Shown here: piece by piece, positions 15,716-36,464 of the stretch
Numbering within the stretch: position 1 is the first letter of the stretch
Layout: each line of letters begins with the position of its first letter
Virus record (IMG/VR): IMGVR_UViG_3300035040_000064
Direction: 5' to 3' (one strand)
DNA from: a virus
DNA length: 36,464 nt
Notes under the pieces: generated by a model
The model's input: the letters and a program-made list of their open reading frames with translations, nothing else
Database searches by the model: none
Told to the model about the DNA's origin: nothing
Position numbers and translations under genes: made by a program

Positions 15716-15729
15716 GAGGAGGATAAAGC

Positions 15730-16109: not shown

Positions 16110-16111
16110 TT

Positions 16112-18971: not shown

Positions 18972-19177
18972 TGCAACAGTACCGCACCCGCGACGGAGAC
19001 ATGCTCGACGAGATTTGCCACAGCTATTACGGCTGCACCGTCGGGGCGGTGGAGGCGGTGCTGGAAGCCAACCCCGGCCTGGCGGCGCTCGGCGCGGCCT
19101 ATGCCGCCGGGGTGGTGATCGCCATGCCGGAGCTGCCGTCCACGGAAACCGCGCAAGCCATTCGCCTGTGGGATTGA
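18971..19177 (+). CDS. Tail protein, P2 gpX-like
   Basis: MQQYRTRDGDMLDEICHSYYG...VEAVLEANPGLA... is typical of gpX. TGATG overlap. Confidence 0.85.
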   Translation: MQQYRTRDGDMLDEICHSYYGCTVGAVEAVLEANPGLAALGAAYAAGVVIAMPELPSTETAQAIRLWD

Positions 19178-19178
19178 T

Positions 19179-21378: not shown

Positions 21379-22366
21379 CCATCTGTTGCCCCCCAACGCC
21401 AGCGCCGCCGAACGGGCGCTGAGCGAGGCCACCGCGCGCTTGGCCGATGTGCCGGTACCCGTGGGTACGCTGTGGGACCCGCAGGCCTGCCCGCCGCAGG
21501 TGCTGCCCTGGCTGGCCTGGGCACTGTCGGTCGATACCTGGAGCAGCGACTGGCCCGAGGCCGCAAAGCGGCAGGTCATCGCTCAGAGCATCGCCATACA
21601 CCGGCGCAAGGGGACGGTGTGGGCCGTGCGCGAAGCGCTGCGGGCTGCGGGTTATGCCGAGGCCATCATCTCGGAGGGCTTGCCGAAGCTGACACATGAT
21701 GGTGCGCAGCTCTACAGCGGCGAGGAGACGTATTTCGGAGGGAGCCGCTGGGCGCTCTTTGATGTGCTGGTCGACTTGGGCGAGATTGAGGGGGTCGACG
21801 CGGCGTCCAGGGCGCGCCTCACCGCCCTGATCGATATGGCCAAGCCCGCAAGCCGCCATCTGCGCCAGGTAGAGTTCAGCGCCCATATGGCCGACCAGGT
21901 GGGCACCCTTGAGCAGACCGCCACCACCGTTTCGCCCGCCCTCGAGGAGGAAGCTCACTTCGGTCTGACCTACGGCGGGCAAGTCAAGCACGACCAGGCG
22001 CAGCTCGTCGAAGGGCACGATCCGGTCTTTTTCGATGGGGTATGGCGACACAACGCAGAGCAGGGTTACAGCGGACAGAGCAAGTACAGCCTCTGGGACG
22101 TGACTGGCGAGCGCTACGCCAACGAGCGCAGCGCCCTGGAGATGGGGGTGATCCCCATGTCCGCCGGGGACGCCTACGCGCTTGTCTCCCCCTCTTACGA
22201 CGGACTGGCGGCGATGGACGGCGCGGCTCGGTATGGGGAAGCAACAGGCGCGCCCCGCGATGTGATGTCGATTACCCTCACCAGACAAGTGCGCCACAAC
22301 GGCAGACACTGCTTCGACGGAACGCGCCGCTTTGCAGCGACCTTTGTCGAATCTCTCACAGCATAA
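21371..22366 (+). CDS. Tail protein, P2 gpI-like, with a C-terminal extension of about 150 aa
   Basis: LLPPNASAAERALSEA...WDPQACPPQVLPWLAWALSVDTWSSDWPE...KRQVIAQSIAIHRRKGTVWAVREAL is the canonical gpI pattern. Confidence 0.9.
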   Translation: MSSHLLPPNASAAERALSEATARLADVPVPVGTLWDPQACPPQVLPWLAWALSVDTWSSDWPEAAKRQVIAQSIAIHRRKGTVWAVREALRAAGYAEAIISEGLPKLTHDGAQLYSGEETYFGGSRWALFDVLVDLGEIEGVDAASRARLTALIDMAKPASRHLRQVEFSAHMADQVGTLEQTATTVSPALEEEAHFGLTYGGQVKHDQAQLVEGHDPVFFDGVWRHNAEQGYSGQSKYSLWDVTGERYANERSALEMGVIPMSAGDAYALVSPSYDGLAAMDGAARYGEATGAPRDVMSITLTRQVRHNGRHCFDGTRRFAATFVESLTA

Positions 22367-22382
22367 AAGGAGGCCATCAAAG

Positions 22383-22823
22383 ATGAATCTGAGCGACACA
22401 CCAGCCCCCCCACGCGGAGTCCTGCATGTGCAGGTCTATCGCCACGGAGCCCTGATCGATGAATTCGAGGACGACAACCTCATCGTCAACGGCGCCCGCG
22501 ATGCCCTGGCGCAGCTCATCGGCGGCGACGGCGCTGGCAAAACCGTGGCGCAGATCGGCTTCGGTACGAGCGGCGACGGGCCAAGCCCGGACGACGCCGC
22601 CTTGACGGGCGCGTATGTCAAAAACCTTTCGGGGCGCACCTATCCCGCGCCAGGGCAGGTCGAATTTAGTTGGAGTCTGGCCACGAGCGAGGCCAACGGC
22701 AAGGCGATACGGGAATTCGGGCTCGTGTGTTCGGATGGGTCGCTTTTCTCGCGCAAGGTGCGCGGGGCGATCGAAAAAGAGTCGGATATCAGCCTCTCGG
22801 GGACGTGGACCATTACATTTTAA
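22383..22823 (+). CDS. Putative tail fibre / baseplate-associated structural protein (unassigned family)
   Basis: AAAGGAGG RBS. 146 aa, predicted beta-rich, between gpI and the fibre gene. Confidence 0.4.
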   Translation: MNLSDTPAPPRGVLHVQVYRHGALIDEFEDDNLIVNGARDALAQLIGGDGAGKTVAQIGFGTSGDGPSPDDAALTGAYVKNLSGRTYPAPGQVEFSWSLATSEANGKAIREFGLVCSDGSLFSRKVRGAIEKESDISLSGTWTITF

Positions 22824-22834
22824 GGAGTTAAATC

Positions 22835-23713
22835 ATGGCAAATTTGAGCGAAGCCAGCGAGTGGGTAGCCGGTGTCTACCAGATCGAAACGACCGATCCG
22901 GTGGTGGGCGGACCCAACGGCATCAGCAACGTGCAGGGCAAGCAGCTCGGCAATCGCACGCGGTATCTGAAAGACAAGGTCGAAGAGCTACAGGCGCTGG
23001 CCGAGGGGATCGACGACGAGGCGCAAAACGCCATCGTGGCCGCCATCTCCCAGGCTCTGTCGATCTCGGGCGTCAATACCCAGGCGATAGAAAACCTCCA
23101 GCACCGCTCCCTGGCCCAGGGGACGGTGGTGCTCAAAAACAAATGGGTCGTCTCGGGGTGCGTACTGAGCAAGGCGGACATCAGGGCGCTGCACCTGTCG
23201 GCCAGCGGCACCGTGGGCAGCGGCGTAAGCCGGGCATGGATCGACGGCGGCATGCGCTTTATCCCCGACGATGACTACCACGTGACGGTCCCAACCAACC
23301 CCGGCACCTCCGACGTGGTCTATTACGCGTACCTGGCGCTGGAGAGCGGGGCGTACCGGGTCGATTTGGATACGGCCGTCCCCGACGCGGCACTGCTCTT
23401 GTACCAGCTGACCGTGCCGGCAGGAGACACAGCAAACAACCTGAGCGCCGTCACGCTGACGGATCGTCGCACGCTGCAGCCCTGGAACGGCTGGACGATC
23501 AACACCGTCCAAGACGTTTACGTGCCCCTTCCCGCCCCCCAGCTCAACGCTCCCGATTACGCAGTGGAGCTGATGGTGGAGTCGGCAACCTACATCGGGG
23601 CCGTGGGCGAGCTGGAGGTCGTCGACCGGCAACAGAACGGCTTCAAGATCCGCATCAGAGGCAGCGCCGACAACGTGATGGTACGTTGGACGCTGCTCAA
23701 CCCGGCAAATTAA
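22835..23713 (+). CDS. Tail fibre protein
   Basis: The N-terminus ...SEWVAGVYQIETTDPVVGGPNGISNVQGKQLGNRTRYLKDKVEEL is the conserved myovirus fibre attachment motif. Confidence 0.75.
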   Translation: MANLSEASEWVAGVYQIETTDPVVGGPNGISNVQGKQLGNRTRYLKDKVEELQALAEGIDDEAQNAIVAAISQALSISGVNTQAIENLQHRSLAQGTVVLKNKWVVSGCVLSKADIRALHLSASGTVGSGVSRAWIDGGMRFIPDDDYHVTVPTNPGTSDVVYYAYLALESGAYRVDLDTAVPDAALLLYQLTVPAGDTANNLSAVTLTDRRTLQPWNGWTINTVQDVYVPLPAPQLNAPDYAVELMVESATYIGAVGELEVVDRQQNGFKIRIRGSADNVMVRWTLLNPAN

Positions 23714-23725
23714 GGAGGATCGACC

Positions 23726-24070
23726 ATGCAAAAGATCATCATGACAGAAGGGCGCCATGCGACGGTCGCCCTGGAGGGCGCCATCCTGACCGTGGGCAAC
23801 TGCGCCATCGACCTGGCCGCCCGGCAGGCGGATGTCGCCACCGCCATCGATCTCTCTCTCTCCGGCGACGGCAGCGTCGTCGAGGGCCGAGGGGCGGGAT
23901 GGTACGTGGCCAACATCGTGATTCCGCCGGCGACCTACACCGATGTAGAAACCGGGGAGAGCGGCGAGGACGGGTCTCCCGTCATTGAGCGCCGGCTCGA
24001 CCCCCTGAAAACCGATCTCGTGACTCTCAACCTGTGGGCGTTGCCCACCACCGCAACCGAAGGAGAATAA
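23726..24070 (+). CDS. Hypothetical protein in the fibre module (possible fibre accessory)
   Basis: GGAGG RBS. 114 aa. No motif recognised. Confidence 0.4.
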   Translation: MQKIIMTEGRHATVALEGAILTVGNCAIDLAARQADVATAIDLSLSGDGSVVEGRGAGWYVANIVIPPATYTDVETGESGEDGSPVIERRLDPLKTDLVTLNLWALPTTATEGE

Positions 24071-24072
24071 TC

Positions 24073-25131
24073 GTGAGCATCATCATCAGCATTAAGGACA
24101 GTCTGCGCCAGAGCGTGGAAGCCGCCACCGGCGGTCAGGTAACCGTGATGTACGACGACAAGGGCTATCCCAGCCACATGTGCCGAGTCCCCCTGTTTAC
24201 TCTCGATACGATCGACCCGGCGTGGCCTGCGACCCCGCACCCCGCCTTCGTGGTCAACGGCACGACGAAATCGGAAATATGGGTTGCCCAGTACCCCGCC
24301 AACGTGCACGACGGCATGGCGCTCTCGCTGCCCGGCCAAAATCAGACAACCTCAGTCAACTTCGACACGGCAGACGCCCGTTGCAGCGCCAAGGGGGCAG
24401 GCTGGCACATGATGACCAATGCCGAATGGGCGGCGATCGCGCTTCTGACCCACAAGCAGTTCGGTGCGGACTCGATCCACGGCAACACCGATTACGGCCG
24501 CGACTATCTGGCGACCTTCGAGACAGCACCCCGGCAGGACGCCGGCACGCCGGGCGAAGCCAGCGGCACCGCCCGCACCCTGCCCGGCGCGGGTCCCGCC
24601 TCATGGCGGCACAACGGCGAGCCGAGCGGCATCGCCGATCTGGTCGGCAACGTCTGGGAGTGGGTGCGCGGCCTGCGCATCGTCGACGGAGAGATTCAGA
24701 TCCTTGCCGATAACAATGCAGCTGACCAGAGCGCTGACCAGAGCGCGACTAGCAGCGAATGGAGAGCAATTTTACAGGATGGGTCTCTTGTTGCGCCCGG
24801 CACAGCAAGCACCCTCAAGTGGGACAGCAACAGCGGCGTGCAGCTCGCAACGGCAGTGACGACCGTCGGCACGCCCTCTACGCAGTATAAGGACGTCGTC
24901 GCCGCATCCGGCGTGACGATCCCCGCGATCCTTCAGCAACTCGGTCTGCACCCGCACGCCACCGACATGCAGCGCGGGCGGCTCTATGTCAACAACGAAG
25001 GGGAGCGTCTGCCGTTCCGTGGTGGCTACTGGGACAATGGCGCTTACGCCGGGGCCTTTGCCCTGTGCCTGTACAACCAGCGTTCGTATGCGTACACGTA
25101 CATCGGGTTCCGCCCCGCTTTCGTTCTGTAA
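24073..25131 (+). CDS. Tail fibre tip / receptor-binding candidate with an FGE-sulfatase (C-type-lectin-fold) domain
   Basis: GTG start after AAGGAGA. Motifs: ...GWHMMTNAEWAAIA..., ...DLVGNVWEWV..., ...RGGYWDNGAYAG...IGFRPAF. Confidence 0.65.
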   Translation: MSIIISIKDSLRQSVEAATGGQVTVMYDDKGYPSHMCRVPLFTLDTIDPAWPATPHPAFVVNGTTKSEIWVAQYPANVHDGMALSLPGQNQTTSVNFDTADARCSAKGAGWHMMTNAEWAAIALLTHKQFGADSIHGNTDYGRDYLATFETAPRQDAGTPGEASGTARTLPGAGPASWRHNGEPSGIADLVGNVWEWVRGLRIVDGEIQILADNNAADQSADQSATSSEWRAILQDGSLVAPGTASTLKWDSNSGVQLATAVTTVGTPSTQYKDVVAASGVTIPAILQQLGLHPHATDMQRGRLYVNNEGERLPFRGGYWDNGAYAGAFALCLYNQRSYAYTYIGFRPAFVL

Positions 25132-25368
25132 TCTGTTGTCTGTGATCTGGTGGAGCGGGCGATAGCCCGCTCTGCCTTTTGGATCGACCTCCAAAGCCCC
25201 CGCCAAATCAATCAAGGTGGAAGTTTCCGGGTCTGAACGCCCGTTTTCGTACTTCCAGAGCAAGCCTTTCTTTATGCCTACCAATTCGGCCAGCGCCTTC
25301 TGGGTAAGCCCGCTCTTCTCTCTGGCTTCTTTTATCCTGAGCCCAAGCTCTTCTCGTAGGTTTTCCAT
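24772..25368 (-). CDS. XRE-family HTH regulator; only the first 65 aa or so look like a real domain
   Basis: MENLREELGLRIKEAREKSGLTQKALAELVGIKKGLLWKYENGRSDPETSTLIDLAGALEV is a clear HTH_3 domain. The frame has no stop until 24772, which lies antisense inside the fibre-tip gene. Confidence 0.6.
   Translation of the reverse strand: MENLREELGLRIKEAREKSGLTQKALAELVGIKKGLLWKYENGRSDPETSTLIDLAGALEVDPKGRAGYRPLHQITDNRLQNESGAEPDVRVRIRTLVVQAQGKGPGVSAIVPVATTERQTLPFVVDIEPPALHVGGVRVQTELLKDRGDRHAGCGDDVLILRRGRADGRHCRCELHAAVAVPLEGACCAGRNKRPIL
25153..25180 (+). terminator. Rho-independent terminator after the fibre genes
   Basis: GAGCGGGC-GATA-GCCCGCTC followed by TGCCTTTT. Confidence 0.6.
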
Positions 25369-25504
25369 GACCTAAGTTTAACCACTTTTTTTGCAAAAAG
25401 TAAACAAGTTCACAAAACAAGAACTACAAGCAAAAACAGTGTCTTATATGAGAAACAGAACTCGCTATACGCCCTCCCCAGTCTATGTATCGAGAAAAAG
25501 TCAC

Positions 25505-25533
25505 TTGACAGTTCTCCGTATGTCGATTAAGTT
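25505..25533 (+). promoter_or_regulatory. Sigma70-like promoter for the rightward HTH gene
   Basis: TTGACA (25505-25510), 17-nt spacer, TAAGTT (25528-25533). GGAGAG RBS precedes the ATG at 25560. Confidence 0.5.
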
Positions 25534-25559
25534 GTCTACAAATAGAGAACGGAGAGCTT

Positions 25560-26069
25560 ATGACTATCGGAGAAAAAATATTAAAAGCACGAAAAAGCAA
25601 GGGTTTGACCGGCGAAGAACTTGGGAATCGTGTTGGCCTGTCAAAGGGAGCCGTTTGGAAAGTAGAAAATGACTCTTTAAAGGGCGGCCCACAGCCAGAG
25701 CTGGTTGTCAAAGTAGCGAACGCACTGGGTGACAACACCATACTTCTCCACTACCTCGAGGAGAACCCGGTCTACCGCGCTATTATCCCGCGTATTTTCC
25801 CTGACCTGAACAACATTCGCCGTGATCCGGCGATCATCTTTTCTCGTTTTGCTGATGAGGCGGGTGAGGCTATTGAAGCTGCGCGCATCCTCTCTCAGAT
25901 TTTCAGCAATGCGAACCCTGAAAACACCCCGAATTTTGAGGCGGTGTTTAAGGCGAATATGGAGCAGATCGTTGATGTGCAGCGGTGTGCTGAGATTCTT
26001 TTTGTTGGGCTGATTCATGCGGGCGTGATGACGGATGTGGATCAGCGTGTGAAGGCGCGGCGCAAATAG
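25560..26069 (+). CDS. XRE-family HTH regulator with a C-terminal domain (CI- or Cro-like role)
   Basis: MTIGEKILKARKSKGLTGEELGNRVGLSKGAVWKVEND... is an HTH_3 domain. It is divergent from the leftward HTH gene. Confidence 0.75.
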   Translation: MTIGEKILKARKSKGLTGEELGNRVGLSKGAVWKVENDSLKGGPQPELVVKVANALGDNTILLHYLEENPVYRAIIPRIFPDLNNIRRDPAIIFSRFADEAGEAIEAARILSQIFSNANPENTPNFEAVFKANMEQIVDVQRCAEILFVGLIHAGVMTDVDQRVKARRK

Positions 26070-26135
26070 TCCCATCACGGCGTGCGGCTGGCCCCGACCG
26101 TTGCGCCGTTATCTCAGCCACAGGGGTGGACACTA

Positions 26136-26177
26136 CCCGGCGGTTGTTTCCTCCTTACGCGCCGCCGGGGACTTTTT
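26136..26177 (+). terminator. Candidate terminator
   Basis: CCCGGCGG (26136-26143) pairs with CCGCCGGG (26162-26169) and is followed by GACTTTTTG. The 18-nt loop is long. Confidence 0.4.
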
Positions 26178-26204
26178 GCAGCGTAAGGGGATAAGGAGGG
26201 AACC

Positions 26205-26363
26205 ATGGCTGATAAGAGTTTTGCACGGCAGCATTTGATTTGTTTGGCATGGCAGGAGCGCAGGCTTTTGCGCCGACTGCATGACGGAGAAAGCGCTTAC
26301 ATGCTGGGCTACTATCACGGCTTGCTGACCGCACTGCGGACAATGAGGAGAAGGAAAGCATGA
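26205..26363 (+). CDS. Hypothetical small protein (52 aa; below the ORF-track cutoff)
   Basis: AAGGAGGG lies 4 nt upstream. The translation is MADKSFARQHLICLAWQERRLLRRLHDGESAYMLGYYHGLLTALRTMRRRKA. ATGA overlap with the next ORF. Confidence 0.5.
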   Translation: MADKSFARQHLICLAWQERRLLRRLHDGESAYMLGYYHGLLTALRTMRRRKA

Positions 26364-26545
26364 AGTACATCAAGTTTATTTTTGGAGCTGTTGCCTGGTT
26401 TGCGGCTACCTGCCTGCTCGCATCCCTAGCGCTCGATGCGATGGAGTGGGAGCAGGACCGCCAGGCGGCAGCGGCTGCTGAGTATCGGCAGCAGGTGGAT
26501 CAAGAGCTTGTTGTCCAGCACGCTGTGTATCGTGCGGGGCAATGA
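26360..26545 (+). CDS. Small membrane protein (hypothetical)
   Basis: Transmembrane segment FIFGAVAWFAATCLLASLAL. Translationally coupled to the upstream ORF. Confidence 0.5.
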   Translation: MKYIKFIFGAVAWFAATCLLASLALDAMEWEQDRQAAAAAEYRQQVDQELVVQHAVYRAGQ

Positions 26546-26679
26546 TGATCCCCCGCACCCCCTCTGTGCTGCAGGCGCTCCAGATTCAATTGTTCATGGC
26601 TCGCGGCAAAATGTCGCGGGTCCTTCTGGGCGTACAGCGTAGAGCGGGCGGCAAAGCCCCAATATTTGCGTCCATTTGA
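26542..26679 (+). CDS. Possible small ORF (45 aa)
   Basis: ATGA overlap with the upstream stop. The translation is MMIPRTPSVLQALQIQLFMARGKMSRVLLGVQRRAGGKAPIFASI. No motif recognised. Confidence 0.25.
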   Translation: MMIPRTPSVLQALQIQLFMARGKMSRVLLGVQRRAGGKAPIFASI

Positions 26680-26742
26680 GATTTGAATTTCATTTGGAAA
26701 AATGGAATTTGTTTGCGTGATTTCGGATAGTTAGGTTAATTG

Positions 26743-28218
26743 ATGGGTGTTCCCGAGATTGATTACAAGTTTGTAAAAGACTGCCTCGATGCAAACGAGC
26801 TGGGTGATGGGATGTTGTTCGCCCATCTGCACCAGGGGCAGTTTGTTTACGTAGCCAGCGCGGATGAGTGGTACGCGTGGGTCGGACACCACTGGGAGCG
26901 CGACGTCAAAGAGCGCAGCGCCTCCGCCGTGGAGCATGTCGCGGTCCAGTACCTGGCAGCAGCAGACGGACTGGAGCCTATGATAAAAGATGCGCTCGCG
27001 GAGAAGGAGAAAGACAAAGCCGCTGCGTTGCGCGAGATCCAGAAGAAGTACCGCAAGCGCGCTGAAAAGCTCCGCTCAGACCGCGGCATTCGCAGCACCC
27101 TACGTTTTGCCCGGATAGGAGAACACGCCCTCGCGATCCACGGCGAAGAGCTCGACCAGAAACCATGGCTGCTTGCATGCAACAACGGTGTAATCAACCT
27201 CAAGAACGGCCAGCTGCGCGACGGTCGCCCTGAAGATTACCTAACCATGGCATGCCCTCACGACTACAAAGGGCTCGACCACCTCGATGACCGTTGGGAA
27301 AAATTCCTCCTGCAGATATCCAACGAGCGCGAGGAACTTGTTGACTACTACCAGCGCATCCTCGGCTACGCCATCACCGGACTATCCACCGTCCCCGACT
27401 TCTTCGCTTTAGCCGGACAGGGTCGCAACGGTAAATCGGTCCTGATCGAAACCATCGCCCACGTACTGGGAGATCTCGCCGGACCCATCCCAGCCGAAAT
27501 GCTCCTCGATCAACCCAGCAGCAGATCCGCCAACGCCGCCAGCCCCGACATCATGAAGCTGCGCGGACTGCGCATAGCCTACGCCAGCGAGACCGACGAA
27601 GGGCGCAAATTCTCCAGCAGCCGGATCAAGTGGCTCACCGGTGGCGACCGCCTCACCGGCCGCCACCCGCACGACAAATACTGCGTCGATTTTACCCCCA
27701 CGCACACACTGTTCCTGCTCACAAACCACAAACCCCGCGCCGCAGCCGATGACTTCGCCTTCTGGGAGCGCTGTCGCCTCATCTGGTTTGAACTCAGCTT
27801 CGTCAAAGATCGCGAACCACGCCCCGACAGCAACGAGCGCCCCGCAGACCCAGACCTCGCCGCGACCCTGCAGGAATGCGCACCCGCGATCCTCTCCTGG
27901 CTGGTCAACGGCTGCCTGCGCTGGCAAGCAGAAGGCACCACACCACCGCCGATAGTCAAAGAAGCCACCGCCGCCTACCGCCAGGAGCAAGACATTATCC
28001 AGGAATGGATAGACGACTGCATCGAGGAGGATCCATACGGGTCAGCACCAGCGCGCGAACTCAACCAAAGCTGGTCGCAATGGTACGAAGCTAACGTCGG
28101 AAAACGCGTCCCATCTCAGCGCTGGCTCGGGCAACAACTCGGCAAACGCTACACAAAACGCAAAGCACGTACCGGCTACGTCTACGATGGCATACAGGTG
28201 ATCCATGAATTTATTTGA
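26743..28218 (+). CDS. D5 / P4-type primase-helicase (SF3 NTPase) protein
   Basis: Walker A AGQGRNGKS. ...RILGYAITG..., ...FLLTNHKP... and the C-terminal ...YTKRKARTGYVYDGIQV are typical of phage/plasmid primase P4-family C-terminal regions. Confidence 0.85.
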   Translation: MGVPEIDYKFVKDCLDANELGDGMLFAHLHQGQFVYVASADEWYAWVGHHWERDVKERSASAVEHVAVQYLAAADGLEPMIKDALAEKEKDKAAALREIQKKYRKRAEKLRSDRGIRSTLRFARIGEHALAIHGEELDQKPWLLACNNGVINLKNGQLRDGRPEDYLTMACPHDYKGLDHLDDRWEKFLLQISNEREELVDYYQRILGYAITGLSTVPDFFALAGQGRNGKSVLIETIAHVLGDLAGPIPAEMLLDQPSSRSANAASPDIMKLRGLRIAYASETDEGRKFSSSRIKWLTGGDRLTGRHPHDKYCVDFTPTHTLFLLTNHKPRAAADDFAFWERCRLIWFELSFVKDREPRPDSNERPADPDLAATLQECAPAILSWLVNGCLRWQAEGTTPPPIVKEATAAYRQEQDIIQEWIDDCIEEDPYGSAPARELNQSWSQWYEANVGKRVPSQRWLGQQLGKRYTKRKARTGYVYDGIQVIHEFI

Positions 28219-28221
28219 TAC

Positions 28222-28520
28222 TGCGCACCTTGCGCACCATATCGCACCTTGGTTCTCGCAAGGTCAACGGGGGAACGGGGTGGAATTATTACACAATTTA
28301 GACAGTGTGAACCTTGCGCACCTTAATCTGAATATACGCACACGTGCGCGCGCGCGAGCGATAGCCGGAACCCTACAAACAACAATAAAAAAACATACCT
28401 TACTTTATACAAAAAAAGGTGAACAAGGTTCACAGAGTAATAAAAAAATAAATATTTTAAGTATTTAGACTGCGCACCTTTTACAAAAAAAGGTCCACAT
28501 AAGGTGCGCAAAGGTGCGCA
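28222..28520. repeat. Candidate replication origin: TGCGCACCTT iterons flanking AT-rich tracts
   Basis: Direct copies at 28222-28231, 28231-28239 (TGCGCACCA), 28242-28250 (TCGCACCTT), 28315-28324 and 28471-28480. Inverted copies AAGGTGCGCA at 28501-28510 and 28511-28520. AT-rich stretches at about 28385-28470. Palindrome TGAACAAGGTTCA. Confidence 0.65.
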
Positions 28521-28564
28521 CTAAAGATTTACAGCCCTTTTACTGGATAGAAAGGAAAAAGCAA

Positions 28565-29104
28565 ATGCAATACAGCTTCCCCGAAACACGCTTCGTTGCA
28601 GAAAACACCTCGGTAAAGCAGCGTGCTCACGTAATGAGCGAGGCTTTTGAAGCGCAAGACGCCATAAACCATGGTGAGACTGAAGAGAGAATCGATGAAG
28701 AGTTCATGGATCTGGTGCAGGCGCTGACGACATATTTTAAATGCAGGGAGAGAGAAAAAGGCTCTGATTACGTTCAGGGTGTTTGGGATTTTGTTTACAG
28801 CAAAACAGCAAGGCGGGGCAACTATACCCGGAAGGAAACACTGGAGATACTTGACGAGATAGAAATCCTAACTCAGAAAAAAGCCGCGCACCTAAGAAGG
28901 TTTGTGGATGAAGTTTTCGACATACACCCAGATCTAAAAGTATCAGCCTCAGATATATATGCTGAATATTTAGAGTGGGAAGATCGCCAGCCGTTAAACC
29001 TTAGAAGATCTCAGCGACACCTGGGTAAATATCTTACCTCCAGATTCACAAAGACACGTACAGCCGGTGGCTACATCTACCACGGCATTGGAATAAAGGG
29101 CTAA
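28565..29104 (+). CDS. Two-domain protein: MazG-like N-domain plus a primase-C-terminal-like winged-helix domain
   Basis: MQYSFPETRFVAENT...SEAFEA...EERIDEEFMDLV carries the EExxE...ExxD pattern. The C-terminus ...YAEYLEWE...LGKYLTSRFTKTRTAGGYIYHGIGI resembles the C-terminus of the 26743 product. ORF 28514 extends upstream into the iterons. Confidence 0.55.
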   Translation: MQYSFPETRFVAENTSVKQRAHVMSEAFEAQDAINHGETEERIDEEFMDLVQALTTYFKCREREKGSDYVQGVWDFVYSKTARRGNYTRKETLEILDEIEILTQKKAAHLRRFVDEVFDIHPDLKVSASDIYAEYLEWEDRQPLNLRRSQRHLGKYLTSRFTKTRTAGGYIYHGIGIKG

Positions 29105-29108
29105 CCCC

Positions 29109-30515
29109 ATGATCCTTCAACTCCTACAAGAACACGGCATCAGTCCTAAGCGCGTCAGCAGTCACCAGGGCGGCGAGTACCACAGCCCCTGTCCGCGCTG
29201 CGGTGGCACCGACCGCTTTCACGCCTGGCCAGATCAGAACGAAGGGCAGGGCAGCTTCTGGTGTCGCCAGTGCGACCTCGGCGGCGATGCCATAAAATTC
29301 TTGATGGAATACAACGGGCTCAGCTTCCGCGACGCCGCCAAACGCACCGGCAAAGAACTCACAGCACAACAGCGCAACTATACCCCCCGCGCGCCAAAAA
29401 CCAACGCCCCAGCAGCCAAACAGCTCACCCCGCGTGAAGTCACCAGCCCAGAGCACAACTGGCAGATACAGGCACACAAACTAATCCTCCACGCCGCCGA
29501 AGCCCTCCAGCAGAACTCCGCGCAGCTCCAGTACCTCCAAACACGCGGCATCAGCCCACAACAAGCCATCAAATTCAGCCTCGGCTTCGTCGGCGGAGAA
29601 AAACCCGCCGTATTCAGCGCGCGCAGCAAGTGGGGCCTAGAACCCAAACAGGGCAACAAAAAACCCGACGCCCTCTGGATACCCCGCGGCATTGTCATCC
29701 CCAACCTCATCGGCGATGAAGTAAACAGCATCCGCATCCGCCGCCCCAAGCAAGACCGCACCGGCCAGCTCGCCGACCTCAGCTACTACGTAATGCCCGG
29801 CTCCGGCACCGCGCCCCTGCTCCACTACCACGGCCAGCGCACCATCGTCGTAGTAGAAGCCCAGCTCGATGCCATCCTCATCGATCAACACGCAGGCGAC
29901 ATCACCGGCGTCCTCGCCCTCGGCAACGACTCATCCAGACCAGACGGCAACGCCCACAAAGCACTCCAGCAAGCCAGCCTGATCCTCATAGCCCTAGACA
30001 ACGACGAATCAGGCCAGAAAAATGCCCACAAATGGCTCGACTGGTACGACACCGCCGCCATCTGCACCCCGCCGCAAGGCAAAGACCCCGGCGATTATCA
30101 CCAGGATCACAACGGCGATATCCGCCACTGGCTCTGCCAGCACATCCCTGCCGTGTGGACCACACCCAAAAAACCGCGCCCCGCAGCCACAAAAAGCGCG
30201 CCCACAGAACCCGACCAGCCGATCCGCAAAATCATGCGCCGCAAAGATGGCACATACCTCGGCATCGTCAGCGATCCAGCCATAAAACAAGCCTACGCCC
30301 GCCAGACCGGCTACAACGTCATAACCTTCGACGAAGTAGACCACCTCGCAACCATGGAAGAAAACGCGCGCGAGCAATGGCTGATCGATAACGACCCCCG
30401 CCGCCAGATCATAGACGGCCCCAAACCCGATCAGGATATAACCATGCAAGCCGCCAACATCTTCAACGGCAGCATAACCGGAAACGAACCCCAACAACCG
30501 GAGCAATCAAAATGA
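29109..30515 (+). CDS. DNA primase (zinc finger plus Toprim domain)
   Basis: SPCPRCGGTDRFHAW...FWCRQCDLGGDAIKF is a CHC2-like finger. Toprim motifs VVVEAQLDAI and LIALDNDESGQK are present. Confidence 0.8.
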   Translation: MILQLLQEHGISPKRVSSHQGGEYHSPCPRCGGTDRFHAWPDQNEGQGSFWCRQCDLGGDAIKFLMEYNGLSFRDAAKRTGKELTAQQRNYTPRAPKTNAPAAKQLTPREVTSPEHNWQIQAHKLILHAAEALQQNSAQLQYLQTRGISPQQAIKFSLGFVGGEKPAVFSARSKWGLEPKQGNKKPDALWIPRGIVIPNLIGDEVNSIRIRRPKQDRTGQLADLSYYVMPGSGTAPLLHYHGQRTIVVVEAQLDAILIDQHAGDITGVLALGNDSSRPDGNAHKALQQASLILIALDNDESGQKNAHKWLDWYDTAAICTPPQGKDPGDYHQDHNGDIRHWLCQHIPAVWTTPKKPRPAATKSAPTEPDQPIRKIMRRKDGTYLGIVSDPAIKQAYARQTGYNVITFDEVDHLATMEENAREQWLIDNDPRRQIIDGPKPDQDITMQAANIFNGSITGNEPQQPEQSK

Positions 30516-30817
30516 TCTACCTATTCCCAAAAACACGCTTCGCCGAAACCAACACCCTGGATGAACAACAGCAACACATCCTCAGCGAAGCCGACGAAGT
30601 GCGCAACAGCATCATCAACGCCGAGCCAGCACAACGCACCACCGAAGAAGTAATCGACACCTGGCACAGCATCGAGACCTACATCCGGATCCTAGAAAAA
30701 GAATACGGCATCGAGCGCGTCCTCGAAGCCATCGACCAGGTAGTAAAGAAAAACGACGAGCGCGGCTACTACCAGCAGCCGACGCCAACCATCCAGATCG
30801 ATCAGGAGGACAAATAA
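30512..30817 (+). CDS. MazG-like small protein (paralog of the N-domain of the 28565 product)
   Basis: MIYLFPKTRFAETNT...SEADEV...TEEVIDTWHSIETYI aligns by eye with MQYSFPETRFVAENT...SEAFEA...DEEFMDLVQALTTYF. Confidence 0.55.
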   Translation: MIYLFPKTRFAETNTLDEQQQHILSEADEVRNSIINAEPAQRTTEEVIDTWHSIETYIRILEKEYGIERVLEAIDQVVKKNDERGYYQQPTPTIQIDQEDK

Positions 30818-31243
30818 ATGGTCAACAAAGTGATTTTAGTGGGCAACTGTGGTGCTGATCCTGACTTGCGCTACACCCCAGCAGGCACAGCCGTAACCAC
30901 CGTAAACCTCGCCACCAGCGAAAAATTCAACGGCCGCGACGGCAGCAAGCAAGAGCGCACAGAGTGGCACCGCCTCGTATTTTGGCGTCAGCTCGCCGAA
31001 ATTTGCGGCAAATACCTGCATAAGGGCAAGCAGATATATGTCGAAGGTAAACTCCAGACCAGGAAATGGCAGGATCAAAGCGGCATCGATCGCTACACCA
31101 CCGAAGTCGTAGTCGACAAAATGCAGATGCTCGGACGCGCCAGCGATGGGCCAGCCAACCAGGGCAGCACCCCGGCACCGGACCAGGCACACCCACAGCA
31201 GGGTCAACCCGAGTTTGACCCCTCAGACGAGATCCCTTTTTAG
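30818..31243 (+). CDS. ssb: Single-stranded DNA-binding protein
   Basis: [35 protein letters not shown]...TEWHRLVFW...[13 protein letters not shown]..., a Gly/Pro/Gln linker, and the acidic tip DEIPF. Confidence 0.95.
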
Positions 31244-31257
31244 ATGTGGAGGCGAAA

Positions 31258-32043
31258 ATGGAACCGAACTACGACATCCCCCACAGCAAAAACGAAGAAG
31301 ACGACATCCATCAACAGGAGATGCTCCGGCGCAACCCCCTGCGCATCATCAAGCCCGGAGATCCCGACTTTGAAAGGATTGCCCAGGAGATCATGGAAAA
31401 TCAGCAGAACGATAAAAAAACTCCGCCGCCAACGCCGCAACCGGCGCATAAACCGGCACAAAAGAGCGTAAAAAAGCTCATAAAATGCAAAAGCTGCGGC
31501 GCAGAAACTCACAACCATGGGCGCGGGCTCTGCCCTAAGTGCTACCGACGTGAAGAGCGCGAAGACACCCTGGATGCAAACTACCCATCCAACCGCGGCG
31601 GCAACCAAAAAGAACACTGCGCCGAATGCGGCGCCTTAACTAGAATAGAATCACGCGGCATGTGCCGCAAGTGCTATCAGCGCTGGCACTACCACAATAA
31701 AAGAAAAGCAAAAACCGCCGGCACCCAACGGGTAGAACAGGCAAAAGAAAACCTGCGCAAAAACCTGGACAAAAAAAAGGGAGAACGCGCCCAAAGCAGG
31801 GTGGGCACCGCCCACCAGGGCACCAAGCCCAAGCCGGACGCAGTAAACCACCCGACCCACTACACCGTCCACCCCTCCGGCATCGAGTGCATCGACATAA
31901 CCGAGCACATGAACTTCTGCACCGGCAACGCCATCAAATACATCTGGCGCGCAGGGCAAAAAGGCGACCCCATCCAAGATCTCGAAAAAGCCCTCTGGTA
32001 CATCCGGCGCGAGATCAAACGTATGAAGGAGGCCCAGGCATGA
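31258..32043 (+). CDS. Composite protein: tandem CxxC zinc ribbons, a REP-derived linker, and a DUF3310 domain
   Basis: Ribbons: CKSCGAETHNHGRGLCPKCY and CAECGALTRIESRGMCRKCY. C-terminus: ...HPTHYTVHPSGIECIDITEHMNFCTGNAIKYIWRAGQKGDPIQDLEKALWYI is a DUF3310 signature. Confidence 0.65.
   Translation: MEPNYDIPHSKNEEDDIHQQEMLRRNPLRIIKPGDPDFERIAQEIMENQQNDKKTPPPTPQPAHKPAQKSVKKLIKCKSCGAETHNHGRGLCPKCYRREEREDTLDANYPSNRGGNQKEHCAECGALTRIESRGMCRKCYQRWHYHNKRKAKTAGTQRVEQAKENLRKNLDKKKGERAQSRVGTAHQGTKPKPDAVNHPTHYTVHPSGIECIDITEHMNFCTGNAIKYIWRAGQKGDPIQDLEKALWYIRREIKRMKEAQA
31796..31816 (+). repeat. REP-like unit, type A variant (GCAGGGTGGGCACCGCCCACC), inside a coding region
   Basis: It is identical to the type A core. 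It is translated in frame as RVGTAHQ, between the zinc-ribbon and DUF3310 parts. Confidence 0.65.
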
Positions 32044-33155
32044 ACATCCACCTCATAGCCCACACCCCAGACGCCACCAAAGTCGTCGCCCGCGCCGCTC
32101 TTATGCAAAGCGCAGATGTGTTTGTTATCAATCGTGAGAATGTGCCCTGGTTGGTTGATCTTTATAAAACAAAATGGCCGTTTGATCATGTAGTTATTGA
32201 CGAATCGAGCAGCTTTAAAAATCCATCGGCAAAACGCTTTAAAAAGCTGAAAAAGATACTTCCTTATACTGAATACATGACGCTCCTGACCGGCACACCA
32301 TCGCCTAACGGCCTGCTTGATCTATGGTCGCAAAGCTATTTAGTAGACTTCGGCGTCAAGTTAGGACGCACCATGACAGGATACAAAAGGCGCTTTTTCG
32401 AGCCGGATTATATGGGTTACAACTGGACACCCAGAGAAGGATCAGCAGCAGAAATACACGCGTTACTATCTGACTTCGTATTGAGCATGAGCGCAGAGGA
32501 TTATCTGGAGCTCCCCGACAGCATAAAAACCGTTGAATATGTAGAACTGCCCCAAAAGACGCAACGCGCATATCAGAAGTTTGAAACAGAATTACTCGTA
32601 ACGCTGGAGGACGGGGAAGAAATAGAAGCCTCAACCGCCGCTGTGCTTGCTAATCGCCTGTTACAGTATAGCAACGGCGCAATCTATACCGATGAGCTGA
32701 AAAATTGGTCAGAGACCCACACGGAAAAACTGGATGCCCTTGCGGATATAATCGAGCAAAACCCGACAGAGAACTTGCTTGTCGCATACAACTACAAGCA
32801 CGACCTGGAGCGATTGCAACAGCGATTCCCAGACGCTCGAGTATTAGACAAAAACCAAAGCACTATTGAAGAATGGAACGCAGGGCAGATAAAGCTGTTG
32901 CTTGCGCACCCCGCCAGCGCCGGACACGGCATAAACCTGCAACACGGGGGATCTGTTATCATCTGGTTCGGCTTAAACTGGTCGCCTGAACTATATCAGC
33001 AATTCAATAAGCGCGTCGATCGACAAGGGCAAACTAAACCTGTGCGCATTGTTCATATCGTAGCTAAAGACTGCATTGACGAAAGAGTATTGCAAGTGCT
33101 AGACAGCAAAGGTGCAACACAAAAAGAATTGCTAACCGCGCTCAAAAAACCTTGA
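32040..33155 (+). pseudogene. SNF2-family helicase lacking the N-terminal Walker A / motif I region (truncated or chimeric)
   Basis: Present: motif II VVIDESSSF, motif III LLTGTPSPNGLLDLW, motif V HPASAGHGINLQ, motif VI QQFNKRVDRQGQ. There is no GxGKT and only about 50 aa precede motif II. GC content drops sharply about 60 nt into the gene. Confidence 0.55.
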
Positions 33156-33179
33156 CTGTGTGCGCCAGTGTGATAGTGT
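33152..33179 (+). promoter_or_regulatory. Sigma70-like promoter, copy 1 of a conserved element (TTGACT-16nt-TAGTGT with an upstream TG)
   Basis: CCTTGACTGTGTGCGCCAGTGTGATAGTGTAC is closely similar to 35646-35678. Confidence 0.5.
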
Positions 33180-33235
33180 ACACACATCAGTAGTCAAGAA
33201 ATCCTTTACAACTCAATTACGAAGGGGGAACGACA

Positions 33236-34606
33236 GTGGAGTATTTAGATTTTCTGAAGTCAAAGCAGCACAGTCTGGGAAATATGGGTTTTGAACCCGT
33301 ATGGATGCCAGATTGTGCTTTTGATTTTCAGGAGCATGTTATTGACAGATCGGTGCGCAAGGGCCGAATAGGGGTTTTTGCAGATACTGGACTAGGCAAA
33401 ACCCTGATGCAGCTTGCTTTTGCCGAAAACATTATTCGCAAGACAAACAAAAACGTGCTTATTCTCACGCCTATAGCCGTGGCGTTTCAGTTCTTAAAAG
33501 AAGCCGAGCGTATAGGAATGTCAGACATTTGTTACAGTAAGGATGGCACGTTTAACGAAAAAATTGTTGTCTGCAACTATGAACGCCTGCACCGCCTAGA
33601 CCCGCACGACTTCGGGTGTGTAATGCTTGACGAGTCCAGTATTTTGAAAAATTTTAAGGGCAAGATAAAAGCGCAGATAATGGCTTTTATCAAAAAAGTT
33701 GAATATAGGATGCTATCCACTGCCACTCCCAGCCCAAACGACTTTATAGAGCTAGGGAACAGCTCTGAGGCGCTTGGATACATGGGTTACATAGATATGC
33801 TCGGCAAGTTCTTCAAGTCCAACCAGAACAGCGTAGACAGCAACAGCCGTAACATAGGCGAGAAGTTCTATCTTAAGCCACACGCTGAAAAGGATTTTTT
33901 TGCATGGGTGAATCAGTGGTCTGTGATGATAAAAAAGCCCTCTGACCTAGGATACAGTGACGAGCGGTTTATTCTGCCAGAGCTCCACGTAAACACTCAC
34001 ACGGTGCAGAACAAAGACCCTCTATGCGTGGATGGTCAGAATATGCTCTTTAGTGTGCCAGTCCACACAATGACGGAAGTCCGCGCAGAACAGAAAAATA
34101 CAGTCACGCAACGGTGCGAAAAAGCCGCAGAACTCGCGCATGGCAAAACATCCGTGTACTGGTGCAACTTGAACGAGGAAGGAGACCTGCTTTCAGAGCT
34201 TGACAAAGACGCCGTGCAGATAAAAGGCGGCATGAGCATAGACAAAAAAGAGGATATTCTTTTATCGTTTGCCGAAGGCGGTATTGAAAGACTGATAACT
34301 AAACCGCGCATGACTTCAATGGGGTTGAATTGGCAACATTGCAACCATACAACATACTTCCCCACCTGGAGCTATGAACAATATTACCAAGCCATACGGC
34401 GATTCTGGCGCTTTGGACAGAAAAAAGAGGTAGTATGCGACATGGTGATAAGCGACGGGCAGAGCAGAGTTGTGGAAGCTCTGGATCAGAAAATGCAAAA
34501 AGCCATTGAGCTATACGAAAACCTTGTGTGTAACACTAATCGGGAGTTTCATCATAGCGTTAAACAATTCGACAAAACAGCCAAACTACCGGAGTTTTTG
34601 ATATGA
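33236..34606 (+). CDS. SNF2/DEAD-like helicase (complete motif set)
   Basis: Motif I ADTGLGKTL, motif II VMLDESSILKN, motif III LSTATPSPND, motif VI YYQAIRRFWRFGQ. GTG start after GAAGGGGGA. ATGA overlap with the methylase gene. Confidence 0.8.
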   Translation: MEYLDFLKSKQHSLGNMGFEPVWMPDCAFDFQEHVIDRSVRKGRIGVFADTGLGKTLMQLAFAENIIRKTNKNVLILTPIAVAFQFLKEAERIGMSDICYSKDGTFNEKIVVCNYERLHRLDPHDFGCVMLDESSILKNFKGKIKAQIMAFIKKVEYRMLSTATPSPNDFIELGNSSEALGYMGYIDMLGKFFKSNQNSVDSNSRNIGEKFYLKPHAEKDFFAWVNQWSVMIKKPSDLGYSDERFILPELHVNTHTVQNKDPLCVDGQNMLFSVPVHTMTEVRAEQKNTVTQRCEKAAELAHGKTSVYWCNLNEEGDLLSELDKDAVQIKGGMSIDKKEDILLSFAEGGIERLITKPRMTSMGLNWQHCNHTTYFPTWSYEQYYQAIRRFWRFGQKKEVVCDMVISDGQSRVVEALDQKMQKAIELYENLVCNTNREFHHSVKQFDKTAKLPEFLI

Positions 34607-35625
34607 ATACTACAAAAGATCAGGAAGTAACACAGGACTACGCAATTTATAATAGTGATTGTATGGAGATATTGCCAGCGTTGCCGGAAAAGAGTGTGGA
34701 CTTATCTATATATTCTCCTCCATTCGCAGGCTTGTACAATTATTCTAGCTCTGAAAGGGACTTTTCAAACTGCGAATCAAAAGAGCAGTTTATGGAGCAA
34801 TACGAATATTTGGTTACAGAAATTGCCAGAGTTACAAAACCCGGCAGAATTAGCGCGGTACATTGTGCTGATGTTTTTGATAACTCGTGTTACCTATGGG
34901 ATCTACCCGGCGAAATAAGAAAGATCCACGAGCGCCACGGTTTTTATTACCGCAACCGCATAACTATCTGGAAAGAACCCCTCAAGGTGCGTATGCGCAC
35001 AATGGTTAAAAGCCTGATGCACAAGCTCATTGTTGAGGACTCCACACAATGCTTTACAGCTATGCCGGACTATGTACTGATCTTTACGCGCAAGGGAGAA
35101 AACGAAGTGCCGGTTACGCACCCCGAAGGCTTAAAAAGATACTTCGGTGCAACGCCTATCCTGCCCAACATTCTTCAGGCATTTAATAACGCCAACGGCA
35201 CAACTTTTAACGAGGAAGAACTGTGGGAGTATTTGAAAAACGAATATGTAGACCACAAAGACCCGAAAAGCAACAAGCTGAGCCATTACATTTGGCAGCG
35301 TTACGCTTCAAGCGTGTGGGATGATATCCGCATTGATAATGTACTGCCATACCGCGATACAAAAGAAGAGGACGACGAGAAGCACGTGCACCCTCTTCAG
35401 CTCGACGTAATAGATCGCCTGGTAGAGTTGTACTCCAACGAGGGAGAAACGGTATTAACCCCATTTATGGGAGTTGGTAGCGAAGTGTACAGCCCTGTTA
35501 GCATGGGCAGAAAAGCCGTGGGAGTTGAACTCAAAGACAGCTATTTTAAGCAGGCAAAGATAAATCTTAGCCATGCAAAAACCAGATTTGACAATATGCC
35601 AGGCCACCAGAAAGGGCTTTTTTAA
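34603..35625 (+). CDS. DNA methyltransferase, beta-class N4/N6 family (SPPF motif, probably N4-cytosine)
   Basis: Motif IV is SIYSPPFAGL near the N-terminus, and motif I is VLTPFMGVGSE near the C-terminus. No adjacent nuclease gene. Confidence 0.8.
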   Translation: MNTTKDQEVTQDYAIYNSDCMEILPALPEKSVDLSIYSPPFAGLYNYSSSERDFSNCESKEQFMEQYEYLVTEIARVTKPGRISAVHCADVFDNSCYLWDLPGEIRKIHERHGFYYRNRITIWKEPLKVRMRTMVKSLMHKLIVEDSTQCFTAMPDYVLIFTRKGENEVPVTHPEGLKRYFGATPILPNILQAFNNANGTTFNEEELWEYLKNEYVDHKDPKSNKLSHYIWQRYASSVWDDIRIDNVLPYRDTKEEDDEKHVHPLQLDVIDRLVELYSNEGETVLTPFMGVGSEVYSPVSMGRKAVGVELKDSYFKQAKINLSHAKTRFDNMPGHQKGLF

Positions 35626-35647
35626 CCGAAAAAAATATATTATCCCC

Positions 35648-35675
35648 TTGACAGTATGCGTGTGTATGATAAAGT
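35648..35675 (+). promoter_or_regulatory. Sigma70-like promoter, copy 2 of the conserved element (TTGACA-16nt-TAAAGT with an upstream TG)
   Basis: CCTTGACAGTATGCGTGTGTATGATAAAGTGTAC is closely similar to 33150-33181. Confidence 0.5.
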
Positions 35676-35717
35676 GTACTCAACAGCGAGGGAACAGGAC
35701 ATTAGAAGGAGACACCA

Positions 35718-36137
35718 ATGGACAAAAGAGCCACACTATATCTTGAACCACACACCCGCCAACTGCTGAACGTGGGAGAAAACCGATCAGCCCGTGCTAA
35801 CGGGATTTTCTCGCGCTACATCGAGATCATCCGCAAGCACGTGCCTATGCTAGGCATTGACGAGTGGTGGTGCATCATCCAGTGCAACCGCGATCTTGAC
35901 GATACCGCCGACGTTACCCGCCAGGTGTACCGCAATCTGCTTGATGCGCCGCCGGAACATGACAACCTGATAAATATCGTTCGCGGTATGGGTTTTCTCG
36001 AACGCTGCGCAGTGGCAGAGATTGCCATGCAGGGGCAAAAGCTGGAGAGCATGGACGAGTTGGAGGGGTATTTTATCCTTTGTTCCGTAAAACCCCGTCG
36101 TTCACGGCGGGGATATAAGGAACGGTTTAGATGTTGA
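35718..36137 (+). CDS. Hypothetical protein; the last 20 codons or so are read from the IS left end
   Basis: GGAGA RBS. 139 aa. The C-terminal ...CSVKPRRSRRGYKERFRC is translated from the left-end hairpin region. Confidence 0.5.
   Translation: MDKRATLYLEPHTRQLLNVGENRSARANGIFSRYIEIIRKHVPMLGIDEWWCIIQCNRDLDDTADVTRQVYRNLLDAPPEHDNLINIVRGMGFLERCAVAEIAMQGQKLESMDELEGYFILCSVKPRRSRRGYKERFRC
36093..36112 (+). repeat. Left-end subterminal imperfect hairpin CCCCGTCG-TTCA-CGGCGGGG
   Basis: 8-bp stem with one T-G mismatch and a TTCA loop. It is near-identical to the right-end hairpin at 1000-1019. Confidence 0.75.
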
Positions 36138-36168
36138 CATTTAAACGAAAGAATGGTATCGTTTAAAC
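36134..36168 (+). promoter_or_regulatory. Sigma70-like promoter (TTGACA-17nt-TATCGT) overlapping a 9-bp perfect inverted repeat, directly upstream of the tnpB ATG
   Basis: TTGACA at 36134-36139, 17-nt spacer, TATCGT at 36157-36162. Inverted repeat TTTAAACGA (36140-36148) / TCGTTTAAA (36159-36167). No Shine-Dalgarno sequence precedes the ATG at 36170. Confidence 0.45.
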
Positions 36169-36169
36169 C

Positions 36170-36464
36170 ATGGATATTAAGCGAGCTTACAGATATCGGT
36201 TTTACCCTACTCCGGCGCAGGAAGAAATTTTAGCGCAGACGTTCGGCTGTGCTCGCTATGTCTATAACTACATGCTCCGCCTTCGGACGGATGCCTGGTT
36301 TGAGCGGGGAGAGCGCTTGGGATACCACGAGACCTCCGCTTTATTGACCAAGCTCAAACGCCAGGAAGATCACGCTTGGCTCAAAGAAGTTTCGTCCGTA
36401 CCGGTGCAGCAGTCCCTGCAACACCTTCAGCGGGCTTTTAATAACTTCTTCGCTAAACGAGCTG
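36170..36464 (+). CDS. tnpB: TnpB (IS200/IS605 OrfB-type RNA-guided nuclease), N-terminal part; continues at base 1 across the circular junction
   Basis: ATG at 36170. The translation MDIKRAYRYRFYPTPAQEEILAQTFGCARYVYNYMLRLRTDAWFERGERLGYHETSALLTKLK... is a typical TnpB N-terminus. The frame runs off the window end and is in phase with the ORF at 7-972. Confidence 0.9.
   Translation, partial: MDIKRAYRYRFYPTPAQEEILAQTFGCARYVYNYMLRLRTDAWFERGERLGYHETSALLTKLKRQEDHAWLKEVSSVPVQQSLQHLQRAFNNFFAKRA
36338..36464. repeat. Terminal overlap copy 2 (identical to 1-127)
   Basis: Exact 127-nt identity with the window start. Confidence 0.95.

Follow-up and report, generated by a model that had tools for sequence, protein, structure and literature searches.

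Known related systems and the locus in the window

Insertion sequences (IS) that carry tnpB as their only gene are already known in phages. One such element is gipA of the Salmonella phage Gifsy-1 (AF246666 / NC_010392), whose product GipA has been described as a TnpB-like protein of a phage-carried IS (PMC3627910). In this study, we analysed the IMG/VR virus record IMGVR_UViG_3300035040_000064, a stretch of 36,464 nucleotides called the window below, and found that this tailed phage likewise carries a TnpB-only IS. The element is ordinary for its very large family, and it is very probably a non-autonomous IS of the IS1341 type.

GipA and the TnpB of the window are 58 % identical over their full length. 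The right hairpin of gipA (TCCCCGTCCTTCAGGGCGGGGA) is identical to that of the window and is then followed by GTCAA. A hairpin of the CCCC/GGGG type also lies upstream of gipA, and both hairpins are annotated as repeat regions, although the left palindrome of Gifsy-1 is much longer (44 nt). The sites differ: gipA is located between the tail genes U and Z, whereas the IS of the window is located between replication genes and small genes. The host clades are probably different as well, since the best genomic relatives of the window TnpB are from Polaromonas and Caballeronia. GipA has been reported as a virulence factor, and no such role is implied for the TnpB of the window.

The second system, ISDra2 of Deinococcus radiodurans, encodes a TnpB with the same domain order and the same positions of the catalytic DED residues and zinc finger (PMC8612924, PMC10097598). 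There too, the 3' end of tnpB overlaps the guide RNA scaffold, as does the right end, and the flank supplies the guide, as is predicted for the window. ISDra2 has its own tnpA, whereas the window element has none, and the two TnpB proteins are roughly 40-45 % identical, as judged by eye from the alignment. The transposon-associated motif (TAM) of ISDra2 is TTGAT and differs from the TTAT predicted here.

In IS608 of Helicobacter pylori, the left cleavage site (CL) TTAC is read by the guide (GL) AAAG located 5' of the left hairpin, and the right cleavage site (CR) TCAA lies 10 nt 3' of the hairpin foot (PMC3201880). IS608 and the window IS both have subterminal imperfect hairpins in direct orientation, lack terminal inverted repeats and target duplication, and are inserted 3' of a tetranucleotide. 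The right cleavage site is the same in sequence and in distance from the hairpin foot. The target of the window IS is TTAT and the bases at the GL position are AAAA, instead of TTAC and AAAG, which is the change that would be expected under the IS608 pairing rule (C.G to T.A). Two further differences are that IS608 encodes TnpA and that its left cleavage site is reported about 19 nt from the hairpin, compared with 16 nt in the window.

Borders and ends of the element

The window carries an exact terminal duplication of 127 bp (36338-36464 = 1-127). This is the overlap of a circular assembly (k = 127), and the window is a circularly assembled phage genome with a unique length of 36337 bp. Because of this overlap, a gene that runs across the contig ends, here tnpB, appears split. 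The IS covers 36077..36464 and then 128..1029, 1290 bp (1.29 kb) in all, and its borders at 36077 and 1029 are known to the base because the similarity among near-identical copies stops there in other flanks. The sequence-only reading of this DNA had placed the element at 36074-36464, a range that takes in its left third. The ends consist of the following features:

36073..36076, + strand: TTAT, the target tetranucleotide or left cleavage site and predicted TAM (from the flanks of near-identical copies)
36077..36169, + strand: left end of the IS (from the start of similarity to copies elsewhere)
36089-36092, + strand: AAAA 5' of the left hairpin foot, at the position of the IS608 guide GL (from the sequence)
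36093-36112, + strand: left subterminal hairpin CCCCGTCG-TTCA-CGGCGGGG (pattern search)
1000-1019, + strand: right subterminal hairpin CCCCGTCC-TTCA-GGGCGGGG (pattern search, copies, Gifsy-1 gipA)
1000..1029, + strand: right end, made up of the hairpin and a 10-nt tail AGGATGTCAA, with the last bases TCAA at 1026-1029 (seven right flanks)

Among IS copies at 98.8 % DNA identity (loci L007-L016), the similarity is confined to window 36073/36077..1029. We found these copies in four different left flanks and seven different right flanks, with at least seven other flanks overall. All seven right flanks begin directly after ...GATGTCAA / ...GGGGAGGATGTCAA. On the left side, three of the four distinct flanks end in TTAT directly before CCTTTGTTCC / CCTTTGTTCCGTAAAA-hairpin, and the fourth (L009) ends in TTATCAA. 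For L009, possible origins of the TTATCAA before the left end are recombination across IS copies, an insertion beside TCAA, or a metagenome mis-join. The loci L007 and L008 have their left flank in common and different right flanks, a pattern for which recombination across IS copies or an assembly mis-join is possible.

A search with a degenerate 20-mer hairpin pattern (up to two mismatches) found only two sites in the window, where 0.00 were expected from 100 shuffles. These are the two near-identical subterminal hairpins that had been noticed from the sequence alone. Their details stood as described, namely a T.G pair at stem position 6 in both and a top pair flipped from G-C to C-G between them. 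Their proposed place at the borders of a mobile segment also held, as they lie just inside 36077 and 1029, where the copies in at least seven unrelated flanks diverge. The hairpins are in direct orientation on the same strand and belong to a 24-nt direct repeat at 88 %. The cleavage point at TCAA is exactly 10 nt past the right stem. The IS is inserted 3' of TTAT without terminal inverted repeats and without target duplication (the right flanks do not repeat the left).

The same architecture of left and right ends is kept in 80 genomic and 52 viral relatives. Specifically, the relatives have a left-end hairpin of this type 76-134 nt ahead of tnpB, and the right hairpin with its GTCAA end is found across them and in Gifsy-1 gipA. 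No open reading frame (ORF) other than tnpB lies between the two ends. Excision would leave GGGTATTTTAT joined to CTGGAAGATG as the predicted empty site or donor joint. A 25-mer and a 20-mer across this predicted IS-free junction had no real match in IMG/VR, and the 11 matches in the metagenome collection were all chance matches with unrelated flanks.

The tnpB gene, its product and its promoter

The gene and its promoter have the following positions:

36170..36464, + strand: 5' part of tnpB, codons 1-98 (joined ORF)
1..972, + strand: remainder of tnpB, unique part 128-972, stop codon 970-972 (joined ORF)
36134-36162, + strand: sigma-70-like promoter TTGACA-17-TATCGT (promoter scan; L003 5965-5993 is the same stretch)

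The joined ORF (36170..36464 then 128..972) encodes 379 aa. The product had been read as a TnpB with RuvC residues and a pair of CxxC motifs, and the profile searches bear this out. The RuvC motifs GIDLG (D185), AVETL (E269) and HDRDVN (D351) are all intact, and the zinc finger is formed by C322xxC325 and C341xxC344. The Pfam models HTH_OrfB_IS605 (4e-21), OrfB_IS605 (8e-31) and Cas12f1-like_TNB (6e-26) all matched over their cut-offs, in the order N-terminal HTH_OrfB_IS605, OrfB_IS605 (RuvC) and zinc-ribbon TNB. In NCBIfam, the protein reached 397 bits with guided_TnpB (cut-off 100) and fell just short of the narrower IS200_TnpB model (423.2 vs 425), and its scores with the Cas12f2 and C2c8 models were far under the cut-offs.

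We also aligned the protein with ISDra2 TnpB (8H1J, 8BF8, 8EXA), which covered residues 5-368 at E 2e-83, with the catalytic and zinc motifs in register. The TnpB motifs align with GVDVG, (T)E(HL) and HDRD of ISDra2, whose catalytic residues are D191/E278/D361. Relative to a 99 % variant, the codon differences are 10 synonymous and 4 non-synonymous, a ratio which indicates that TnpB is under purifying selection.

In the tnpB promoter, the -10 element is TG-extended and stops 7 nt short of the tnpB ATG. With the -10 so near the ATG and no Shine-Dalgarno sequence, tnpB may be translated from a leaderless mRNA. Across the spacer and the -10 lies an inverted repeat of 9 bp, TTTAAACGA (36140-36148) / TCGTTTAAA (36159-36167), which could be an operator.

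The predicted omega RNA scaffold and its guide

The predicted guide RNA (omega RNA, also called reRNA) consists of a scaffold with three helices and a guide from the flank:

859..1029, + strand: predicted omega RNA scaffold, overlapping the 3' end of tnpB and the right end (HgcC match, covariation)
911-915/921-925, + strand: helix inside the coding region (RNAalifold, 29 relatives)
940-944/981-985, + strand: helix spanning the stop codon (RNAalifold, 29 relatives)
999-1007/1012-1020, + strand: right-hairpin helix (RNAalifold, 29 relatives)
1030..1045, + strand: predicted 16-nt guide CTGGAAGATGAAATGA (from the family mechanism; PMC8612924, PMC10055086)

In a focused search of the window, the full model of Rfam HgcC (RF00062) matched at 859-1042 with 29.2 bits and E 4e-5. 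The match extends 13 nt past the right border into the flank. The 3' end of the HgcC consensus, ...GGaaCCccCGcccUUuAgggCGggGAGGAGGUCA, aligns column for column with GGAAUCCCCGUCCUUCAGGGCGGGGAGGAUGUCA of the window, whereas the internal stems of the window scaffold have large insertions relative to the archaeal model. HgcC and sot0042 (RF02656) are sense transcripts over the 3' ends of archaeal IS1341-type tnpB genes, and HgcC is presumably a TnpB guide RNA. At gathering thresholds, Rfam gave nothing in the window; a match of CRISPR-DR9 at 996-1030 is the hairpin only (19 bits vs 45).

To this we can add an alignment of 29 elements (53-87 % protein identity) over their last 185 nt, folded with RNAalifold. 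It gave 19 pairs with 95 % of the cells paired, and 79% (15/19) of the pairs have changes on both sides. None of 500 shuffles reached any of the five pairing measures, and the pairing fell to 38-58 % when the partner columns were slid by 1-3. In the right hairpin, seven of the nine pairs have double changes among the 29 relatives. The proposal that this stem is under selection, originally made from a single compensated pair, is thus strengthened by covariation. The right hairpin likely has a dual role, as the DNA hairpin for TnpA and as the last stem of the omega RNA.

The predicted IS-free target site is TTAT followed by the guide CTGGAAGATGAAATGA, and no such site exists elsewhere in the phage genome. 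Furthermore, the phage has 90 TTAT sites on each strand, and none of them matched, with four or fewer mismatches, the guides that nine IS copies would take from their flanks. At the level of these guide sequences, there is no sign that IS copies elsewhere target this phage.

These results bear on two other views of the element. The first is that the IS is an inert passenger, a recent arrival whose TnpB has no activity or effect and which is heading to decay. The lack of a transposase in cis and of a guide target in the collections would fit this. It is nevertheless improbable, given that the ORF is full-length with all catalytic residues, that its codon changes are mostly synonymous (10:4), that the ends and the RNA helices are intact, and that the same phage-IS junctions occur in several independent samples.

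According to the second view, the phage has domesticated TnpB and uses it, guided by RNA, to attack or regulate the host, other phages or genes of its own, comparable to TldR or CRISPR-Cas12. We consider this very unlikely. Both transposon ends are intact, and an identical element in at least 7 unrelated flanks implies that it is still moving. The RuvC triad is intact, unlike that of TldR-type regulators (PMC10705468), and the Cas12 models score far under their cut-offs. The guide is simply the adjacent flank, which matches nothing else in the phage and only chance sites in the collections, and the IS disrupts the 3' end of a phage ORF. What speaks for domestication is a phage without transposase, an intact and conserved TnpB with its own strong promoter, and a diverged related IS in nearly the same neighbourhood of the related phage L103 (see below).

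Copies, relatives and recent mobility

The exact TnpB protein was found in this phage alone (one JGI contig and three Logan runs), whereas 13 contigs with varying neighbours encode a variant that differs at four amino acids. In many cases a contig of about 1.3 kb is the IS alone, and some contigs break exactly at the right border, which is the typical assembly behaviour of a repeated sequence. The near-identical copies in several other contexts indicate, by sequence comparison, that the IS was recently mobile. An assembly artefact, in which an IS of the host or another replicon was threaded into the phage contig as a metagenome repeat, would suit these IS-only and right-border contigs, as for a collapsed repeat, as well as L007 and L008 with their common left and different right flanks, but it is hardly credible, because two to three independent Logan runs (L003, L004, L006) and one JGI sample agree in how both junctions are assembled, the left junction is also present in L005 and two IMG/VR contigs, and the contig is circular with a coherent phage gene order.

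The TnpB family is very large, with at least 8000 protein candidates, many of them at 74-81 % identity, and relatives are encoded by 52 IMG/VR contigs. The best genomic relatives are from Polaromonas (72 %), Caballeronia (71 %) and Methylotenera (66 %), so the host of the phage is probably a betaproteobacterium. An E. coli relative stands solo, between ybhB and bioA. In 80 genomic loci, no credible HUH-like ORF lay closer than 1.5 kb to tnpB, which is weak evidence as the motif/regex filter was crude. For about three quarters of tnpB genes, tnpA is not close by, and mobilisation is thought to occur in trans (PMC10055086).

We also found protein-less mini-elements of 46 bp in IMG/VR (L163, L166, L167, L169, L170 and others). 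They consist of TTAT followed directly by CAGGTGCGCCGTAAAA-CCCCGTCCTTCAGGGCGGGG (hairpin)-AGGATGTCAA, so that one hairpin joins the 5' portion of this family's left end to its right-end tail. The same mini-elements occur unannotated in 3119 of 5426 complete E. coli genomes, with 1-5 copies each. Protein-less elements with the same ends argue indirectly for a TnpA acting in trans. One example in E. coli is NZ_CP127324.1 1296203-1296253 (L179 2501-2551). One mini-element adjoins a prophage tailspike gene, and the mini-elements resemble PATE/REP elements.

Proposed mechanism and the points that weigh against it

Taken together, the data make it highly probable that the element is an IS1341-type IS, TnpB-only and non-autonomous. 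It would need TnpA in trans because no Y1 or serine transposase is encoded in the phage. Pfam scans of the ORFs of the 36.3-kb genome (all six-frame ORFs of at least 90 aa and 49 plausible + strand genes) gave no Y1_Tnp, resolvase (serine transposase) or integrase, in agreement with the earlier observation that tnpA is absent. The sequence-only reading had offered mobilisation in trans, or else homing and exclusion of IS-free relatives; both are part of the standard published model (PMC10055086, PMC11870625, PMC13565253), and they are not mutual alternatives.

The mechanism proposed here follows the model for the family (PMC8612924, PMC10055086, PMC11870625, PMC13565253). A Y1 TnpA from the host or a co-resident element would excise and insert the top strand as single-stranded DNA, as in the family. 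It would use both hairpins, with cleavage on the left at TTAT, which would pair with the AAAA preceding the left hairpin, and on the right at TCAA. A transcript that continues past the right end would give an omega RNA finishing in ~16 nt of phage flank (CTGGAAGATGAAATGA). TnpB with this RNA would then cut phage copies in which TTAT directly precedes the guide sequence, whether these have lost the IS by excision or belong to relatives that co-infect without it. Repair of the cut by recombination with a copy that bears the IS would then restore the IS or spread it, which amounts to a gene drive in a multicopy replicon. Cleavage of the donor joint by TnpB has been described (PMC10055086), and in multicopy plasmids TnpB acts as a gene drive independently of TnpA (PMC11870625).

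Several observations weigh against this interpretation. No cognate TnpA was found for the element. No IS-free allele of the phage was found in any collection searched (IMG/VR, metagenome contigs, proteins), so the precise insertion is deduced from other IS copies and not from an empty site. The other contexts are all from short-read metagenome contigs, in which joins across a 1.3-kb repeat can be chimeric. With regard to the RNA, the HgcC score is below the Rfam gathering score of 50, and ten relatives searched together against Rfam at E 0.01 gave no match. Folded as a single sequence, 855-1045 shows no gain in stability over shuffles (z = -0.06), so it is the covariation that argues for the scaffold structure.

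The interrupted ORFan and a block common to distant phages

The IS interrupts a gene directly upstream:

35718..36137, + strand: ORFan of 139 aa, 3' end interrupted by the IS (from the sequence)

The last 20 codons of the ORFan are left-end sequence, and with the flanks joined the protein would end in ...YFIWKMK*. The ORFan has no Pfam match, no homologue but itself in 5.8 billion proteins, and none in metagenome contigs.

In IMG/VR, we found the ORFan and the IS together in another phage (L097 and L098), which shares only 38 % identity with the window in the helicase and 41 % in the methylase. Its ORFan is 98.6 % and its IS about 99 % identical (L097 4001-5649 vs window 35702-1029). The ten mismatches between the ORFans all fall at 35712-35750, within the first 50 nt, and the next 326 nt, which extend into the IS, are identical. 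Within the IS, this comparison shows a mosaic of two single-nucleotide polymorphism haplotypes. The similarity stops exactly at the right end of the IS, and the right flank (= guide) differs from the first base.

A single homing event as the origin of this block was rejected, because the right flanks and thus the guides differ from the first base. The ORFan as cargo of a larger transposon was rejected as well, since the left limit of similarity is a mismatch gradient and not a sharp border. Recombination with the IS as one homology patch fits the block, and an assembly chimera could also account for it.

The distant phage with the same ORFan and IS at about 99 % gives a hint of a wider role, in which the TnpB-only IS would home under RNA guidance, or act as a gene drive, between phages that co-infect a cell, and would also move adjacent genes as a portable homology block. 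We regard this as a rather doubtful, speculative idea. Homing into co-infecting phages has already been listed as a theoretical mode (PMC13565253).

Two further similarities to the distant phage were observed. The right flank of L097 at 5650-5664 (GGCTCGCTTCTATGG) resembles the IS-internal window 976-990 (GGCTCGCTTCGATGA) at 13/15 positions; this internal match lies ~50 nt upstream of the right end and has no preceding TTAT. The other is a 52-bp stretch at window 35600-35651 (CAGGCCACCAGAAAGGGCTTTTTTAACCGAAAAAAATATATTATCCCCTTGA) that is 100 % identical in L097 with unrelated surroundings. It holds a T-run and the -35 of the ORFan promoter TTGACA-16-TAAAGT.

A related phage (L103, IMGVR_UViG_3300035038_000008, 1-1420) carries a diverged IS of the same family, with 84 % nucleotide and 87 % amino-acid identity. 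About 90 nt separate the right end of that IS from a downstream homologue of window 1525-1746 (97 % identical), and the phage lacks the two small ORFs of window 1065-1525. This could mean that insertions land repeatedly in the region, or that the lineage has carried the IS for a long time.

Gene content of the phage

The structural genes matched in Pfam comprise a lambda-type portal, GpA-type terminase, capsid, tail sheath and tube, GpU, gp25, Baseplate_J and Tail_P2_I. The tail module is P2-like and contractile and occurs together with the lambda-type portal and GpA terminase. Other matches were D5_N/primase, SSB, two SNF2-type helicases and one N6_N4 methylase (34603-35625). Helix-turn-helix matches of the Cro/CI type appeared in two Pfam batches, despite no integrase being found. 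An INPHARED megablast with the phage gave no related phage, and the sole match was the right end of gipA.

The IS is located between the replication module and a block of small genes. Its own GC content is 55 %. The sequence-only reading had described a low-GC accessory region beside a methylase island; the low GC of the flanks is real (46-51 % vs 58 % for the genome), but the island comes down to one N6_N4 methylase, and the large neighbours are SNF2-type helicases.

Implications

For annotation, a putative transposase split across the contig ends becomes a fully delimited element with a predicted TAM, guide, scaffold and promoter, and the delimitation of the IS also corrects the end of the neighbouring ORFan. 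The novelty ascribed to the element by the sequence-only reading was overrated, and knowledge of the family is unchanged by it.

If the doubtful homing idea were true, this would be a natural case of "transposon non-restorative homing", which has so far been shown only for plasmids. The block of ORFan and IS, if confirmed, would document from natural samples that phages exchange modules through the IS or that homing takes place among them. As it stands, we describe one more TnpB-only element riding a phage, which is both a multicopy replicon and a vehicle between hosts. This phage case fits the published idea that TnpB helps the IS reach fixation in multicopy replicons.

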